64,000 bases of DNA. Origin: Escherichia phage vB_EcoM_HZ_ZJUN4. Below the pieces are notes generated by a model, which saw only the letters and a program-made list of their open reading frames with translations, was not told where the DNA came from and searched no databases. Positions 15,137 through 48,913 of the stretch are shown in pieces; position 1 is the stretch's first letter; every line of letters begins with the position of its first letter. The translations under genes and the position numbers were made by a program. Where the stretch lies: the sequence record PP216085. One strand, given 5' to 3'.

Positions 15137-17833
15137 ATGAAAGAATTTTATATCTCTATTGAAACAGTCGGAAATAACATTGTTGAACGTTATATTGATG
15201 AAAATGGAAAGGAACGTACTCGTGAAGTAGAATATCTTCCGACTATGTTTAGGCATTGTAAGGAAGAGTCAAAATACAAAGACATTTATGGTAAAAATTG
15301 TGCTCCTCAAAAATTTCCATCAATGAAAGATGCCCGAGACTGGATGAAACGAATGGAAGACATCGGTCTCGAAGCTCTCGGTATGAACGATTTTAAACTC
15401 GCTTATATCAGTGATACATATGGTTCAGAAATTGTTTATGACCGAAAATTTGTTCGTGTAGCTAACTGTGACATTGAGGTTACTGGTGATAAATTTCCTG
15501 ACCCAATGAAAGCAGAATATGAAATTGATGCTATCACTCATTATGATTCAATTGACGACCGTTTTTACGTCTTTGATTTGTTGAATTCAATGTACGGTTC
15601 AGTATCAAAATGGGATGCAAAGTTAGCTGCTAAGCTTGACTGTGAAGGTGGTGATGAAGTTCCTCAAGAAATTCTTGACCGAGTAATTTATATGCCATTT
15701 GATAATGAGCGTGATATGCTCATGGAATATATTAATCTCTGGGAACAGAAACGACCTGCTATTTTTACTGGTTGGAATATTGAGGGATTTGACGTTCCGT
15801 ATATCATGAATCGTGTTAAAATGGTTCTCGGCGAACGCAGTATGAAACGCTTCTCTCCAATCGGTCGAGTAAAATCTAAACTAATTCAAAATATGTACGG
15901 TAGCAAAGAAATTTATTCTATTGATGGCGTATCTATTCTTGATTATTTAGATTTGTACAAGAAATTCGCATTTACTAATTTGCCATCATTCTCTTTGGAA
16001 TCAGTTGCTCAGCACGAAACCAAAAAAGGTAAATTACCATACGACGGTCCTATTAATAAACTTCGTGAGACTAATCATCAACGATACATTAGTTATAACA
16101 TCATTGACGTAGAATCAGTTCAAGCAATTGATAAAATTCGCGGGTTTATTGATCTAGTTTTAAGTATGTCTTATTACGCTAAAATGCCTTTTTCTGGTGT
16201 AATGAGTCCTATTAAAACTTGGGATGCTATTATTTTTAACTCATTGAAAGGTGAACATAAGGTTATTCCTCAACAAGGTTCGCACGTTAAACAAAGTTTT
16301 CCAGGTGCATTTGTATTTGAACCTAAAGCGATTGCTCGTCGATACATTATGAGTTTTGACTTGACGTCTCTGTATCCGAGTATTATTCGTCAGGTTAACA
16401 TTAGTCCTGAAACTATTCGTGGTCAGTTTAAAGTTCATCCAATTCATGAATATATCGCAGGAACAGCTCCTAAACCGAGTGATGAATATTCTTGTTCTCC
16501 GAATGGATGGATGTATGATAAGCATCAAGAAGGTATCATTCCAAAGGAAATCGCTAAAGTATTTTTCCAGCGTAAAGATTGGAAAAAGAAAATGTTCGCC
16601 GAAGAAATGAATGCCGAAGCTATTAAAAAGATTATTATGAAAGGTGCAGGGTCTTGTTCAACTAAACCAGAAGTTGAACGATATGTTAAGTTCAATGATG
16701 ATTTCTTAAATGAATTATCGAATTACACCGAATCTGTTCTTAATAGTCTGATCGAAGAATGTGAAAAAGCAGCTACACTTGCTAACACAAATCAGCTGAA
16801 CCGTAAAATTCTTATTAACAGTCTTTATGGTGCTCTTGGTAACATTCATTTCCGCTATTATGATTTGCGAAATGCTACTGCTATCACAATTTTTGGTCAA
16901 GTCGGTATTCAGTGGATTGCTCGTAAAATTAATGAATACCTGAATAAAGTGTGTGGAACTGATGGTGAAGATTTCATTGCAGCGGGTGACACTGATTCTG
17001 TATATGTTTGTGTAGATAAAGTAATTGAAAAAGTAGGTCTTGACCGCTTTAAAGAACAAAATGATTTAGTTGAATTCATGAATCAGTTCGGTAAGAAAAA
17101 GATGGAACCTATGATTGATGTTGCATATCGTGAGTTATGTGATTATATGAATAACCGCGAGCATCTGATGCATATGGACCGTGAAGCTATTTCTTGTCCT
17201 CCGCTTGGTTCAAAGGGTGTCGGTGGATTTTGGAAAGCGAAAAAACGTTATGCTCTAAACGTTTATGATATGGAAGATAAGCGATTTGCTGAACCACATC
17301 TAAAAATCATGGGTATGGAAACTCAGCAGAGTTCAACACCAAAAGCAGTACAAGAAGCTCTCGAAGAAAGTATTCGTCGTATTCTTCAGGAAGGCGAAGA
17401 GTCTGTCCAAGAATACTACAAGAACTTTGAGAAAGAATATCGTCAACTTGACTATAAAGTTATTGCTGAAGTAAAAACTGCGAATGATATAGCGAAATAT
17501 GATGATAAAGGTTGGCCAGGATTTAAATGCCCGTTCCACATTCGCGGGGTGCTAACTTATCGTCGAGCTGTTAGTGGTTTAGGTGTAGCTCCAATTTTGG
17601 ATGGAAATAAGGTAATGGTTCTTCCATTACGTGAGGGAAATCCATTTGGTGACAAGTGCATTGCTTGGCCATCAGGTACGGAACTTCCAAAAGAAATTCG
17701 TTCTGATGTACTGTCTTGGATTGACTACTCAACTTTGTTCCAAAAATCGTTTGTTAAACCGCTTGCGGGCATGTGTGAATCGGCAGGTATGGACTATGAG
17801 GAAAAAGCTTCGTTAGACTTCCTGTTTGGCTGA
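15137..17833 (+). CDS. 43: DNA polymerase gp43 (family B, with 3'-5' exonuclease)
   Basis: 898 aa; exonuclease and polymerase motifs (DIE, YGDTDS-like AGDTDSVYV). Confidence 0.95.
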   Translation: MKEFYISIETVGNNIVERYIDENGKERTREVEYLPTMFRHCKEESKYKDIYGKNCAPQKFPSMKDARDWMKRMEDIGLEALGMNDFKLAYISDTYGSEIVYDRKFVRVANCDIEVTGDKFPDPMKAEYEIDAITHYDSIDDRFYVFDLLNSMYGSVSKWDAKLAAKLDCEGGDEVPQEILDRVIYMPFDNERDMLMEYINLWEQKRPAIFTGWNIEGFDVPYIMNRVKMVLGERSMKRFSPIGRVKSKLIQNMYGSKEIYSIDGVSILDYLDLYKKFAFTNLPSFSLESVAQHETKKGKLPYDGPINKLRETNHQRYISYNIIDVESVQAIDKIRGFIDLVLSMSYYAKMPFSGVMSPIKTWDAIIFNSLKGEHKVIPQQGSHVKQSFPGAFVFEPKAIARRYIMSFDLTSLYPSIIRQVNISPETIRGQFKVHPIHEYIAGTAPKPSDEYSCSPNGWMYDKHQEGIIPKEIAKVFFQRKDWKKKMFAEEMNAEAIKKIIMKGAGSCSTKPEVERYVKFNDDFLNELSNYTESVLNSLIEECEKAATLANTNQLNRKILINSLYGALGNIHFRYYDLRNATAITIFGQVGIQWIARKINEYLNKVCGTDGEDFIAAGDTDSVYVCVDKVIEKVGLDRFKEQNDLVEFMNQFGKKKMEPMIDVAYRELCDYMNNREHLMHMDREAISCPPLGSKGVGGFWKAKKRYALNVYDMEDKRFAEPHLKIMGMETQQSSTPKAVQEALEESIRRILQEGEESVQEYYKNFEKEYRQLDYKVIAEVKTANDIAKYDDKGWPGFKCPFHIRGVLTYRRAVSGLGVAPILDGNKVMVLPLREGNPFGDKCIAWPSGTELPKEIRSDVLSWIDYSTLFQKSFVKPLAGMCESAGMDYEEKASLDFLFG

Positions 17834-17847
17834 TAGAATAAATCTAG

Positions 17848-17868
17848 GGACCTCCGGGTCCCTTTTTC
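17848..17868 (+). terminator. hairpin gggacctccgggtccc + TTTTT
   Basis: Perfect GC stem and T run after gene 43. Confidence 0.65.
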
Positions 17869-17940: not shown

Positions 17941-18014
17941 TCACAAAATGGTTTACATCTCTGTTCTTCCGTGGTACTATACAACTATCAACTGATGCGG
18001 ATTTGGAGAATGAA
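17941..18014 (+). promoter_or_regulatory. early promoter/leader cassette copy A (PeSL-like): GTTTACA...TGGTACTATACAACTATCAACTGATGCGGATTTGGAGAATgAAATG
   Basis: About 60 bp shared with copy at 46711-46785; partial matches at 50571-50652, 37481-37563 and 47440-47504. Confidence 0.7.
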
Positions 18015-18395
18015 ATGAAAATCGCTATTTTGGTTATTGCATTGGGTCTTACTGGTTGTGTAGCTCAAGGACCGGTAGTAAATCAATCTGATGTAGGAAA
18101 AATTGTAAACTGTTCAAGCAAATTTTATAATCCTAATGTTAAGTGTTATAAAGAAGCTCCAAAACAGACATTAGAACAAATGCAGGCGAATTTTGATGAA
18201 GCTATTCGTCCAGATGAATCTGCACAAGCATATCGTAATTCAGATGTAATTACACGCGAAGAAAAAATTGAAAACTACTGCGCTGTGCTTTGGGCAAATT
18301 GGGCTAATAATTACCAATGGCGCACAGGTAAAAATGCTCCAATGGAGTATGTAGTGAATTCTTATAATTCATGTGTAAAAAATTTGACTAAGTGA
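18015..18395 (+). CDS. predicted lipoprotein (signal peptide with LTGC lipobox), function unknown
   Basis: MKIAILVIALGLTGC...; track ORF 17826-18395 extends into promoter, true start at ATG 18015 after GGAG. Confidence 0.6.
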   Translation: MKIAILVIALGLTGCVAQGPVVNQSDVGKIVNCSSKFYNPNVKCYKEAPKQTLEQMQANFDEAIRPDESAQAYRNSDVITREEKIENYCAVLWANWANNYQWRTGKNAPMEYVVNSYNSCVKNLTK

Positions 18396-18402
18396 GGAAA
18401 AC

Positions 18403-18654
18403 ATGGAAACTTTAGTAGCAGGTTCAATTTTTATGGTTTTAGTTTCAGGCGTGTTGGCTATTATTATATACATGCTTCCATGGTTCATCGCCTTGATGCG
18501 CGGGTCAAAATCGACAGTAGGAATCTTTTTCACATCTTTACTGTTTAACTGGTCAATTATTGGTTGGTTTATTACATTTATTTGGTCAATTGCTGGTGAA
18601 ACTAAAAAATCTGCGCAGCCAAATCAGGTAATTATCATCAGAGAGAAGGAATGA
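18403..18654 (+). CDS. imm: superinfection immunity membrane protein Imm
   Basis: 83-aa two-helix membrane protein between 43 and 42 as in T4. Confidence 0.75.
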   Translation: METLVAGSIFMVLVSGVLAIIIYMLPWFIALMRGSKSTVGIFFTSLLFNWSIIGWFITFIWSIAGETKKSAQPNQVIIIREKE

Positions 18655-18807
18655 AAAGCAAAATTTTAGCAGTATTGCTTTTAATATTGATGATTATAAT
18701 AAGTATATACTATAGCGTAACAGTTCCTTGTATGATTCCGCCACTTATTATAGGTTGGGGTTTATTACTGTTACAAGTTAAATATGAATGTATCAATTGA
18801 GGTTTAA

Positions 18808-19548
18808 ATGATTAATGACTCTATGACAGTTGAAGAAATTCGTCTTCATTTGGGAATTGCATTAAAGGAAAAAGATTTTGTAATTGACAAAACCGGGGTT
18901 AAAACTATTGAAATTATTGGTGCATCATTTGTAGCAGATGAACCTTTTATTTTTGGCGCTCTTAATGATGAATACATTCAGCGTGAACTTGAATGGTATA
19001 AGTCTCAAAGTTTGTTTGTTAAAGATATTCCAGGTGAAACACCAAAGATTTGGCAGCAGGTAGCATCTTCTAAAGGCGAAATTAACTCGAATTATGGTTG
19101 GGCTATTTGGTCAGAAGATAACTATGCTCAGTATGATATGTGTTTAGCTGAACTTGGTCAAAATCCTGATTCTCGGCGTGGTATCATGATTTATACTCGT
19201 CCATCCATGCAGTTTGACTACAATAAAGATGGTATGTCAGATTTCATGTGTACGAATACAGTACAGTACCTGATTCGTGATAAGAAAGTCAATGCAGTAG
19301 TAAGCATGAGAAGCAATGATTGCTGGGCAGGCTATCGTAATGATTATGCTTGGCAAAAATACGTACTAGATAAATTAGTATCTGACTTGAATGCAGGCGA
19401 CCCATCGCGGCAATATAAAGCAGGTTCTATTATATGGAACGTTGGAAGTCTTCATGTGTACGAAAATCAGTTTTATTTAGTTGACCATTGGTGGAACACC
19501 GGTGAGACTCATATTGCTAAAAAGGATTATACTGGAAAATGGAAGTAA
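18808..19548 (+). CDS. 42: dCMP hydroxymethylase gp42
   Basis: 246 aa; thymidylate-synthase-like fold sequence recognised as T4 gp42. Confidence 0.9.
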   Translation: MINDSMTVEEIRLHLGIALKEKDFVIDKTGVKTIEIIGASFVADEPFIFGALNDEYIQRELEWYKSQSLFVKDIPGETPKIWQQVASSKGEINSNYGWAIWSEDNYAQYDMCLAELGQNPDSRRGIMIYTRPSMQFDYNKDGMSDFMCTNTVQYLIRDKKVNAVVSMRSNDCWAGYRNDYAWQKYVLDKLVSDLNAGDPSRQYKAGSIIWNVGSLHVYENQFYLVDHWWNTGETHIAKKDYTGKWK

Positions 19549-20180
19549 ATGTGCCACATGTTTATAAGTATAAACATCCTAAAACTAAAAAGTGGTATAT
19601 AGGAAGTCATGATGGTCACAACCCGAATTATGATGGTTCGGGTGTAGTTTGGCAACATGCTAAAAAGAAATATGGAATAAAATCCTTTAATAAAGAAATA
19701 TTATATGAAGGACCAATGTTTAGACAGGTTGAAGAAATTATTTTAACTTGTTTAGATGCTGCTAATTGTCCGGATTCATATAATTTAAAGAATGAAGCAT
19801 GGGGAGGAAGTTTTCCAGGCAAATTAAATGGAATGTACGGTAAAAAACTATCTCCAGAAGAAAGATATAAGTGCGGAAATGCCTTTCGTGGAATCAAGCG
19901 TCCTGATCATTCTAAAAGAATGAAAGGCGAAGGTAATCCAATGTATGGTAAAAATGAGCAGGCATATGGAATTATAAATCGAGCCAAGGAAAATTCTGGT
20001 AAAACTTATGAAGAAATTTTTGGCGTAGAAAAAGCTAAAATAATTAAAGAAACGATGTCTAAAAATCGTAAAGGAAAACCTCATAATTTGATAGAAAAAA
20101 TATGTCCGCATTGCGGACTAAAAGGACGTGGGCCAAATATGACAAGATACCATTTTGACAAATGTAAGGCACTTAAATGA
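19539..20180 (+). CDS. GIY-YIG homing endonuclease-like protein (Seg-like)
   Basis: N-terminal VYKYKHPKTKKWYIGS (GIY..YIG variant); C-terminal CPHCG..C zinc finger; overlaps gene 42 stop. Confidence 0.6.
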   Translation: MEVNVPHVYKYKHPKTKKWYIGSHDGHNPNYDGSGVVWQHAKKKYGIKSFNKEILYEGPMFRQVEEIILTCLDAANCPDSYNLKNEAWGGSFPGKLNGMYGKKLSPEERYKCGNAFRGIKRPDHSKRMKGEGNPMYGKNEQAYGIINRAKENSGKTYEEIFGVEKAKIIKETMSKNRKGKPHNLIEKICPHCGLKGRGPNMTRYHFDKCKALK

Positions 20181-21019
20181 TTCAATTCGTAATTCCAAGT
20201 TATCAACGCGTAGGGGCAGTTTCTGCCCTTGATATGTTTCCGACTGATTATGAACCTCATATTGTAGTACGTGAACACGAAGAAAAAGCTTATTATGACG
20301 CTTACGGGTCTAGAGCTAAAATTATAACTATTCCTGATGATGTTAATGGAATTGCTGGAACTCGTAAAGCAATTACTGATATGTATGCAGGTCAACGAAT
20401 CTGGATGATTGACGATGATACTACTATTCGTATGAGTTCAATGCGAAAGAAAGATGATCGTCGCTGCGTAGATAAAATTAACCAGTTAACTCGTGAACAG
20501 TTCTATGAATTGATTCAATACGTTGAAGATGCCATGGATTGCGGGTATTATCATGGTCATGCTCGTTTACCTATTTTTAAAATTACTTCATCTTGGGGTA
20601 ATTATCGTGAAAATTCATATGGATTCACGAATACTTGGTATGACCTCGGAAAACTTGCAACAGAACAAATTGGGTATGGAAAAATTGATTTATGCGAAGA
20701 TATGTATGCATTTCTCAATTTAATTAATCAAGGTTATCCGCATTTGGCCTTGTTCAAATATCTAGTTGTATCTGGAAAAGCACAGGCTCCCGGTGGATGC
20801 AGCTCAATTCGTAGTAATTCAAAACATAATAGAGCGCTTGAGCAAATCAATAGAGAGTTTCCAGAGCAAGCTCGTTGGAAAACTTCTAATATTGAAAAAC
20901 GAAAATCATTGGGTGAAGAAGACGAGCCATTAAAGGTTCTTCGCATGTGTGTTTCACGCAAAGAAAAGTCAGAAGCATTTCATAAGTTTAATGCTATTCA
21001 TCCAATAGCAGTTGATTAA
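20177..21019 (+). CDS. putative glycosyltransferase with DxD motif (WMIDDDTT); candidate T2/T6-type beta-glucosyl-HMC-alpha-glucosyltransferase at the T4 beta-gt locus
   Basis: 280-aa ORF between 42 and uvsX; no resemblance to T4 beta-gt as I recall it; DxD after hydrophobic strand. Confidence 0.4.
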   Translation: MIQFVIPSYQRVGAVSALDMFPTDYEPHIVVREHEEKAYYDAYGSRAKIITIPDDVNGIAGTRKAITDMYAGQRIWMIDDDTTIRMSSMRKKDDRRCVDKINQLTREQFYELIQYVEDAMDCGYYHGHARLPIFKITSSWGNYRENSYGFTNTWYDLGKLATEQIGYGKIDLCEDMYAFLNLINQGYPHLALFKYLVVSGKAQAPGGCSSIRSNSKHNRALEQINREFPEQARWKTSNIEKRKSLGEEDEPLKVLRMCVSRKEKSEAFHKFNAIHPIAVD

Positions 21020-24867: not shown

Positions 24868-24924
24868 TTTACTTTTGTTGGAAATTGAGATACTATATAA
24901 ACATAAACTACTGAGGAGATTATC

Positions 24925-25218
24925 ATGAAAAAATTTGTTTTTGCTGCAATTTTTGCTTTGACTTCTTGTGCTGCTCAGCCTGCTATGGCGGGTTATGATA
25001 AAGATTTGTGCGAATGGTCTATGACTGCAGATCAGACTGAGGTTGAAACTCAAATTGAAGCGGATATTATGAATATCGTTGAGCGTGATCGTCCTGAAAT
25101 GAAAGCTGAAGTACAAAAACAGCTTAAATCTGGTGGTGTAATGCAGTATAATTATGTTCTGTATTGCGATAAAAACTTCAATAATAAAAATATCATCGCT
25201 GAAGTGGTAGGTGAATAA
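24925..25218 (+). CDS. sp: Spackle (Sp), periplasmic superinfection-exclusion / lysozyme-inhibitor protein
   Basis: 97 aa with signal peptide MKKFVFAAIFALTSCAAQPAMA; recognised as T4 Sp. Confidence 0.8.
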   Translation: MKKFVFAAIFALTSCAAQPAMAGYDKDLCEWSMTADQTEVETQIEADIMNIVERDRPEMKAEVQKQLKSGGVMQYNYVLYCDKNFNNKNIIAEVVGE

Positions 25219-39034: not shown

Positions 39035-39299
39035 AATTATGAAATATGTTAATCGTTCTATCGCAGCATTAGTATTAGCAGTATCTTTAGTAGGATGTAC
39101 TGATGCTGATAATGCAACCAAAGTTTTGTCTTCAAGCGGTTTTACTAATATTGAAATCACTGGATATAATTGGTTCGGTTGCTCTGAAAATGATTTCCAA
39201 CACACTGGATTTCGTGCTATTGGACCTACCGGGCAGAAAGTAGAAGGAACAGTATGTTCTGGTCTATTCTTCAAGGATTCGACTATCCGTTTTAAATAA
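39027..39299 (+). CDS. predicted lipoprotein (signal peptide, LVGC lipobox)
   Basis: MKYVNRSIAALVLAVSLVGCTD... Confidence 0.5.
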   Translation: MSEIMKYVNRSIAALVLAVSLVGCTDADNATKVLSSSGFTNIEITGYNWFGCSENDFQHTGFRAIGPTGQKVEGTVCSGLFFKDSTIRFK

Positions 39300-48757: not shown

Positions 48758-48913
48758 ATGAATATTGCAAAACTATTAGGAGTTATTTCATTTATTTGTT
48801 GGATAGTAGCATGTGTTTTAACTATCTGTATCGATGCTAGCAGTGTGTTTTCGCAAGCTTTAGCTCAGGGTATGTGTGCATATTTAACATTTGCGTTGTT
48901 ATCTAATGATTAA
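48758..48913 (+). CDS. ac: small membrane protein (51 aa), probable ac (acridine sensitivity) gene
   Basis: 51-aa hydrophobic ORF after GAGG, position between stp and 52. Confidence 0.5.
   Translation: MNIAKLLGVISFICWIVACVLTICIDASSVFSQALAQGMCAYLTFALLSND

Follow-up and report, generated by a model that had tools for sequence, protein, structure and literature searches.

The window analysed here is a stretch of 64,000 nucleotides from Escherichia phage vB_EcoM_HZ_ZJUN4 (sequence record PP216085). Between genes 43 and 42 it carries imm.1, imm and 42.1 (Table 1). The imm start lies 7 nt past the stop codon of imm.1, and the start of 42.1 overlaps the stop codon of imm (ATGA). imm.1 is the first gene of this early imm.1-imm-42.1 transcription unit. 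The earlier note had described at this place a 126-aa ORF with an LTGC lipoprotein signal and several cysteines, lying between gene 43 and imm. The sequence is borne out by a match to PROSITE PS00013 and by Cys15 plus four further cysteines, and the location by the ORF map and the Pfam Imm_superinfect match of the downstream gene.

Table 1. Features of the imm.1 locus and other features of the window (nt, nucleotides; aa, amino acids)
Feature	Position	Strand	Description
gene 43	15137-17833		upstream neighbour of imm.1
terminator-like hairpin	17846-17868	+	AGGGACC-TCCG-GGTCCCT followed by a T-run; directly after the gene 43 stop codon
early promoter	17952-17980	+	TTTACA-N17-TACTAT; TG 5' of the -10 hexamer; imm.1 start 35 nt on
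Shine-Dalgarno sequence	18005-18008	+	GGAG, seen in the sequence; 6 nt 5' of the imm.1 ATG
imm.1 CDS	18015-18395	+	381 nt, 126 aa, ATG start; DUF5481 / PHROG 1754
lipobox of imm.1	18048-18059		LTGC, codons 12-15
imm	18403-18654	+	83 aa; Pfam PF14373 Imm_superinfect, 7.7e-16; phrog_1039
42.1	18651-18800	+	gp42.1, 49 aa, hydrophobic; phrog_3610, 1.5e-24
homing-endonuclease-like ORF	19539-20180	+	213 aa; phrog_314, 2e-31; weak NUMOD3
beta-glucosyl-HMC-alpha-glucosyltransferase gene	20177-21019	+	280 aa; phrog_842, 6e-89; Pfam TAGT
early-promoter match upstream of sp	24868-24896		
sp	24925-25218	+	Spackle
predicted lipoprotein ORF	39039-39299	+	86 aa; phrog_902
small ORF with hydrophobic N-terminus	48758-48913	+	51 aa; phrog_2501; IVAC

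The protein is 97.6% identical in amino acids to T4 Imm.1 (T4p046, UniProt P18057) and 98.4% identical to the T2 copy in tblastn. It scores 234.6 bits with PF17578 (DUF5481; cut-off 27, E 1.4e-70), with the full profile covered (positions 1-103 of 103), and matches phrog_1754 at 3.4e-43. The map position is the same in the window and in T4, with imm.1 beside imm between genes 43 and 42, and the 1-kb region that joins the gene 43 end to gene 42 shows about 97% nucleotide identity. The two imm.1 genes differ in 12 codons. Since nine of these differences are synonymous, the ORF is coding; the other three give the substitutions T13A (inside the lipobox), L53V and V91E. The earlier note knew of no lipoprotein here in T4, but T4 has imm.1 at the same place, and the two genomes do not differ in this. 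The ORF is almost certainly both the orthologue of T4 imm.1 and a lipoprotein gene. In itself this is an ordinary result: imm.1 is already known as an annotated, catalogued T4 gene, the T4 record describes the product as a 'hypothetical predicted membrane protein', and some database records label its relatives 'lipoprotein'.

The T4 and window genes are equal in length within one codon. In the reference T4 record AF158101 (locus L003, 2134-2514), imm.1 ends one codon earlier, with ...NLT and the stop codon, giving 125 aa and an 11-nt gap to imm. In the window (18384-18395) and in the T4 clone MZ375356 it ends with ...NLTK and the stop codon, giving 126 aa and a 7-nt gap. Apparently the sequences differ by one base near the stop, which may be a true polymorphism or an error in the older sequencing.

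T4 imm.1 has been classed as early at both the RNA and the protein level (PMC9697503, supplements 4 and 6). Detection of the protein in infected cells in that study means that Imm.1 is made. In the CRISPRi-ART screen, knock-down of T4 imm.1 was scored 'Not Fit' (score -0.77, p 0.98), with no fitness cost, and the same supplement gives its function as unknown (PMC11879866). A comparative paper listed Imm.1 among the differences between the T4 and RB69 groups and speculated on exclusion (PMC5885020). No experimental test of Imm.1 was found in the searchable literature.

The N-terminus of Imm.1, MKIAILVIALGLTGC, fits PS00013 as well as the lipobox pattern [LVI][ASTVI][GAS]C, with the cysteine at residue 15. 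Lys2 is followed by an 11-residue hydrophobic core (residues 3-13) with a mean Kyte-Doolittle value of 2.87. Cleavage is predicted between MKIAILVIALGLTG and CVAQ, giving a signal peptide of residues 1-14, and Imm.1 is a predicted substrate of signal peptidase II. The earlier note had named a missing signal peptidase II site, or an orthologue with a known unrelated role, as findings that would speak against it; the site is predicted, and the orthologues have no known unrelated role. A strict lipoprotein-signal pattern matched only four loci among the 219 six-frame ORFs of at least 50 aa in the window, all four on the coding strand, so the Imm.1 signal is not a chance match.

The lipobox is retained in nine of ten diverged lineages, as LTGC, LVGC, LAGC or LSGC. 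In the tenth lineage (protein P0005 of locus L006), the sequence reads LAGF, followed by a signal peptidase I-type signal with cleavage between AHA and S. Thus, export of the protein appears to be universal and the lipid anchor nearly so. At position +2 the ten lineages have V, G, A, Q or S and never Asp. By the +2 rule, this predicts Lol-mediated transfer, and from the absence of Asp at +2 alone we infer that Imm.1 would be sorted to the outer membrane.

Besides the lipobox cysteine, the window protein has Cys33, Cys44, Cys89 and Cys120, and the number of such non-lipid cysteines is always two or four in the ten lineages. Alignment A4 comprises 13 sequences with 22-43% identity to the window protein. 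Its only invariant columns beyond Met1 are Leu-3 and Gly-1 of the lipobox, Cys89 and Cys120, and the lipobox Cys+1 is present in 12 of the 13 rows. Cys33 and Cys44 either occur together or are both missing among the homologues. Such pairing suggests disulfide bonds and thereby a location in the periplasm.

The 181-nt spacer between gene 43 and imm.1 holds both the terminator-like hairpin and the early promoter. The hairpin (17846-17863) has a predicted energy of -13.9 kcal/mol and a z of -2.8. The promoter is an exact match to the PST/T4 PeSL consensus TTTACW-N17-TAYWAT (PMC4122927), which has 15 matches in the window, all on the plus strand, against 0.28 expected. T4 shares this terminator-promoter layout with the window, and its hairpin differs by one loop base. 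The diverged locus L004 has an analogous hairpin and keeps the architecture of a terminator followed by TTTACA-N17-TACTAT.

The earlier note called this arrangement a PeSL-like cassette, and the description is fair, with two reservations. As in PeSL cassettes, a stem-loop terminator and an exact early promoter precede a non-essential, fast-evolving gene, and L004, where the cassette genes have diverged, retains the layout of the spacer. However, published PeSL motifs are composites of about 100 bp with the stem-loop in or beside the promoter, whereas the hairpin here lies 89 nt 5' of the -35 hexamer of the imm.1 promoter, a looser spacing. No second PeSL was found in the window downstream of imm.1-imm-42.1, where the gap between 42.1 and gene 42 is only 7 nt. 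The imm.1-imm island does, however, diverge sharply between conserved flanks in L004 and has moved in Mosigvirus, as a shuffled cassette might. The imm.1 spacer is not listed among the PeSLs in the searchable text of the PeSL papers.

The next consensus promoter after that of imm.1 is at 24868, and imm apparently has no early-consensus promoter of its own in the consensus scan of the window. Together with the start of imm so close behind the imm.1 stop codon, this would suit a gene that is kept only as a promoter and translation feed for imm. It is also conceivable that Imm.1 is not a lipoprotein at all, being N-terminally anchored or secreted instead; the annotation of the T4 protein as a membrane protein and the Phe in place of the lipobox Cys in P0005 would fit. 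Leu-3, Gly-1 and Cys+1 of the lipobox are, however, invariant or nearly so in A4. As for a mere leader, the protein is detected in T4-infected cells, and purifying selection acts on imm.1, as the synonymous and non-synonymous codon counts against T4 and the two invariant cysteines of A4 show. In phages VR7 and JS98, moreover, the gene is downstream of imm, so it cannot serve there as a leader. We regard these two possibilities together as very unlikely.

The close family of Imm.1 is narrow in the collections searched. phmmer against 1.84 billion cluster representatives returned only six matches, which were phage Imm.1 types plus one repetitive chance match, and searches of a 5.8-billion sequence set gave relatives from T4-like phages only. 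imm.1 was found by tblastn in 656 phage records. Phages isolated on Yersinia and on Salmonella also carry copies with 97.6% identity to the window protein, and the matching records include Citrobacter and Serratia phages. Profile methods link Imm.1 to lipoproteins of 145-167 aa from other enterobacterial T4-like phages, namely Klebsiella Jiaodavirus KP17, Salmonella Gelderlandvirus Melville, Serratia phage WSPA, Gaprivervirus VR7 and Dhakavirus JS98. These relatives all match phrog_1754, with E-values from 7e-9 down to 9e-52, and that of Melville is annotated as 'putative conserved lipoprotein'.

P0005 (L006, 718-1086) is the Imm.1 homologue in which Phe replaces the lipobox Cys. Its N-terminal half is T4-like, with about 55% identity over residues 1-84. 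Its identity to the RB69 type is 46% over the whole length, and by eye the C-terminal half is RB69-like, which suggests a recombinant. In L006, the imm.1 relative comes after a 61.4-like gene that itself directly follows gene 43.

The earlier note had also tied the lipoprotein to imm, and this tie proved robust: Imm.1 relatives were found in the imm cluster in all ten lineages examined (seven named genera), in spite of three different gene arrangements. In the first arrangement, the order is gene 43, lipoprotein-imm(-42.1) and gene 42, as in Tequatrovirus, L004, KP17, Melville and L012; WSPA and L006 have the same arrangement with different outer neighbours. In the second, seen in Mosigvirus (JS09, RB69 type), the order is 61.4, lipoprotein-imm and sp, and the pair has thus moved beside the other exclusion gene. 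In the third, seen in VR7 and JS98, gene 43 is followed by imm-42.1-lipoprotein. The lipoprotein gene is directly 5' of imm in Tequatrovirus, Mosigvirus, Jiaodavirus, Gelderlandvirus, a Serratia Muldoonvirus and three metagenomic lineages. In upstream position it is separated from imm by 6-61 nt.

The numbers of records agree with this linkage. The 656 records above (T4 and RB69 types), with 114 of the JS98 type and 145 of the KP15 type, stand nearly one to one against 922 records with imm; the lipoprotein count covers these four types and leaves out the Melville type. T4-type Imm (at least 90% identity) is found in 501 records, and T4-type Imm.1 also in 501. The linkage across T4-like phages suggests that Imm.1 probably acts in the cell envelope with Imm. 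Adjacency of the genes could instead mean shared regulation or shared membrane targeting, not shared function. Neither the conserved, rearrangement-proof linkage to imm nor the pattern of cysteines and lipobox was found described in the literature searched. An exported, fast-evolving lipoprotein that stayed beside imm through at least three rearrangements in seven genera is a testable lead.

42.1 is conserved after imm in L004, L006, VR7 and JS98 and is named 42.1 in the RB51 and VR7 records. Its product is probably the third member of the imm module. Residues P26, M28, P30, W36, L39, Q42, C47 and N49 of gp42.1 are invariant, and the protein ends with ...YEC(F/I)N. The gene is unannotated in both the T4 reference AF158101 and the T4 clone MZ375356, and it is absent from the imm-sp interval in JS09.

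Among the three proteins compared, the lipoprotein evolves fastest: its mean pairwise identity is 27%, that of Imm 48% and that of the gp43 C-terminus 72%. Between L004 and the window, gp43 and gp42 are 85% and 90% identical, but Imm.1 and Imm only 39% and 37%, and the sharp drop in nucleotide identity spans exactly the interval between the gene 43 end and 42.1. In L006, Imm is T4-like (83%), while Imm.1 is 44% identical and has lost the lipid anchor. In a mirror-tree test, the distance matrices of the lipoprotein and Imm correlated weakly and without significance (rho 0.28-0.36, p about 0.06), so we make no claim of co-evolution between Imm.1 and Imm.

AlphaFold2 models of Imm.1 were of moderate confidence, with pLDDT 61 from a 5-row alignment and 63 from a 13-row alignment. 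The first model leaves the N-terminal part unmodelled as far as about residue 49, the second as far as residue 31. Predicted helices span residues 53-64, 68-75, 81-104 and 110-125, of which the last two are best supported (pLDDT about 80-87) and hold the invariant Cys89 and Cys120. The models thus present residues 16 to about 50 as a low-confidence tether and residues 53-125 as a helical domain. A profile search of PDB sequences gave no solved relative of Imm.1, only chance matches with E about 0.6, and no relative with known function was found by fold or by sequence.

Superinfection exclusion in T4 is textbook two-gene biology, the two genes being imm and sp. Imm, an inner-membrane protein, stops genome translocation by binding to gp29, the tape-measure protein (bioRxiv 10.64898/2026.03.06.709160). 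We consider it a serious possibility, although one short of probable, that Imm.1 serves the superinfection-immunity module of T-even phages as an accessory in the periplasm, a proposal made by guilt by association. Lipid-anchored in the outer membrane, Imm.1 would reach into the periplasm with a flexible tether of about 35 residues that carries the helical domain, about 75 residues long. A disulfide between Cys89 and Cys120 would staple the helical domain, and the second pair, Cys33 and Cys44, would be lineage-specific. From the outer-membrane side, Imm.1 could work with Imm, the gp29 blocker, in the inner membrane, either by binding, in a phage that has adsorbed secondarily, part of the tail tip or of the injection machinery, or by positioning or stabilising Imm. 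The encounter with the secondary tail tip would take place just after it crosses the outer membrane, and the receptor would be left unblocked.

Dispensability in the knock-down is as expected of a competition gene, and the fast divergence of Imm.1 suits a phage-versus-phage interface. Against the accessory role, Imm from a plasmid, without Imm.1, excludes T4 and binds gp29 (bioRxiv 10.64898/2026.03.06.709160). The loss of the anchor in L006 and the weak distance-matrix correlation also speak against it. A bolder and doubtful extension is that Imm.1 is an overlooked third component of T-even exclusion and would form, with Imm and gp42.1, an envelope-spanning module that intercepts the tail-tip or tape-measure machinery of the secondary phage, with the fast divergence of Imm.1 setting which relatives are excluded, for example T4 versus RB69. 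If Imm.1 adds to exclusion, to its specificity or to a lysis-inhibition signal, it would be a new component of a classic model system and would also bear on the competition between therapeutic T4-like phages.

The earlier note had compared the lipoprotein with Llp and Cor. T5 Llp and Cor of the T1/phi80 type are small, early phage outer-membrane lipoproteins that inactivate FhuA and shield the infected cell from further phage. By analogy, Imm.1 might bind the periplasmic face of the receptor and stop further adsorption, or keep debris from inactivating progeny. Imm.1 is likewise a predicted outer-membrane lipoprotein made early, in the same place and at the same time as Llp, and imm.1 adjoins an exclusion gene. 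However, no homology to Llp or Cor was found: a Pfam scan to E 1 gave only DUF5481 and a weak lipobox motif, NCBIfam and PADLOC scans gave nothing relevant, and no exclusion-lipoprotein family appeared in any of the three. The receptors of T2 and T4 differ. Since the T2 and T4 copies of Imm.1 are nearly identical to the window protein, Imm.1 does not follow receptor specificity, and the copies in Yersinia and Salmonella phages point the same way. In addition, T4 exclusion blocks genome translocation and leaves secondary adsorption intact, on which lysis inhibition depends (PMC6832632). The analogy is therefore disfavoured, and receptor masking by Imm.1 is very unlikely. The block of DNA entry that the earlier note also named is a possible action of Imm.1.

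Another explanation is that Imm.1 has a role in the envelope other than blocking entry. It might relay or produce the periplasmic signal of secondary adsorption that triggers lysis inhibition, harden the cell envelope against lysis from without, or neutralise a host protease, nuclease, stress sensor or other factor in the periplasm or outer membrane. The predicted outer-membrane-tethered periplasmic location and the early timing fit such a role, as does the dispensability of imm.1 in single infections. imm and sp affect lysis inhibition and resistance to lysis from without, and the periplasmic lysis-inhibition signal is still to be identified (PMC6832632). Linkage to imm, and to sp in Mosigvirus, would suit any function connected with secondary adsorption. 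On the other hand, no specific pointer to any such target was found, a mean identity of 27% is more typical of a phage-versus-phage or defence interface than of contact with a conserved host structure, and one lineage works without the lipid anchor. We regard this role as possible but rather unlikely.

For the accessory role in immunity, the nearest functional analogy is a protein that works like Spackle (Sp, gp61.3) but is lipid-tethered. T4 Spackle, a small bundle of helices in the periplasm with a single disulfide, inhibits the gp5 lysozyme of the incoming tail (PMC7677548). Like Imm.1, it is small and early; export to the periplasm and a helical structure with a disulfide are predicted for Imm.1 as well. 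Spackle has its own early promoter, and in Mosigvirus sp directly adjoins the imm.1-imm pair. In the window, residues 12-15 of Spackle read LTSC and resemble a lipobox, and the N-terminus of Spackle aligns with the Imm.1 signal peptide (MKKFVFAAIFALTSCAAQ). The soluble mature Spackle of 75 aa in the literature implies cleavage after AMA at residue 22. Homology between Imm.1 and Spackle was rejected because the signal peptides alone align.

Two-component spanins (Rz/Rz1; T4 PseT.3/PseT.2) offer another comparison, with adjacent genes for an inner-membrane protein and an outer-membrane lipoprotein and with periplasmic cysteines. A spanin-like pair could in principle bridge the envelope, and contact between Imm and Imm.1 is purely hypothetical. 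Spanins show no homology to Imm.1 and are late lysis genes, whereas imm.1 is early.

Elsewhere in the window, the 86-aa ORF at 39039 has a clean lipoprotein signal (MKYVNRSIAALVLAVSLVG before the cysteine) and would encode a second predicted phage lipoprotein. The hydrophobic N-terminus and IVAC of the 51-aa ORF at 48758 fit the lipoprotein-signal pattern, and its product may simply be a small membrane protein. The homing-endonuclease-like ORF comes after gene 42, with which it shares 10 nt, and before the glucosyltransferase gene, unlike T4, where b-gt directly follows gene 42. The alpha-glucosyltransferase gene stands in the place of T4 b-gt, so the phage is not T4 itself but a Tequatrovirus with T2/T6-type DNA glucosylation.
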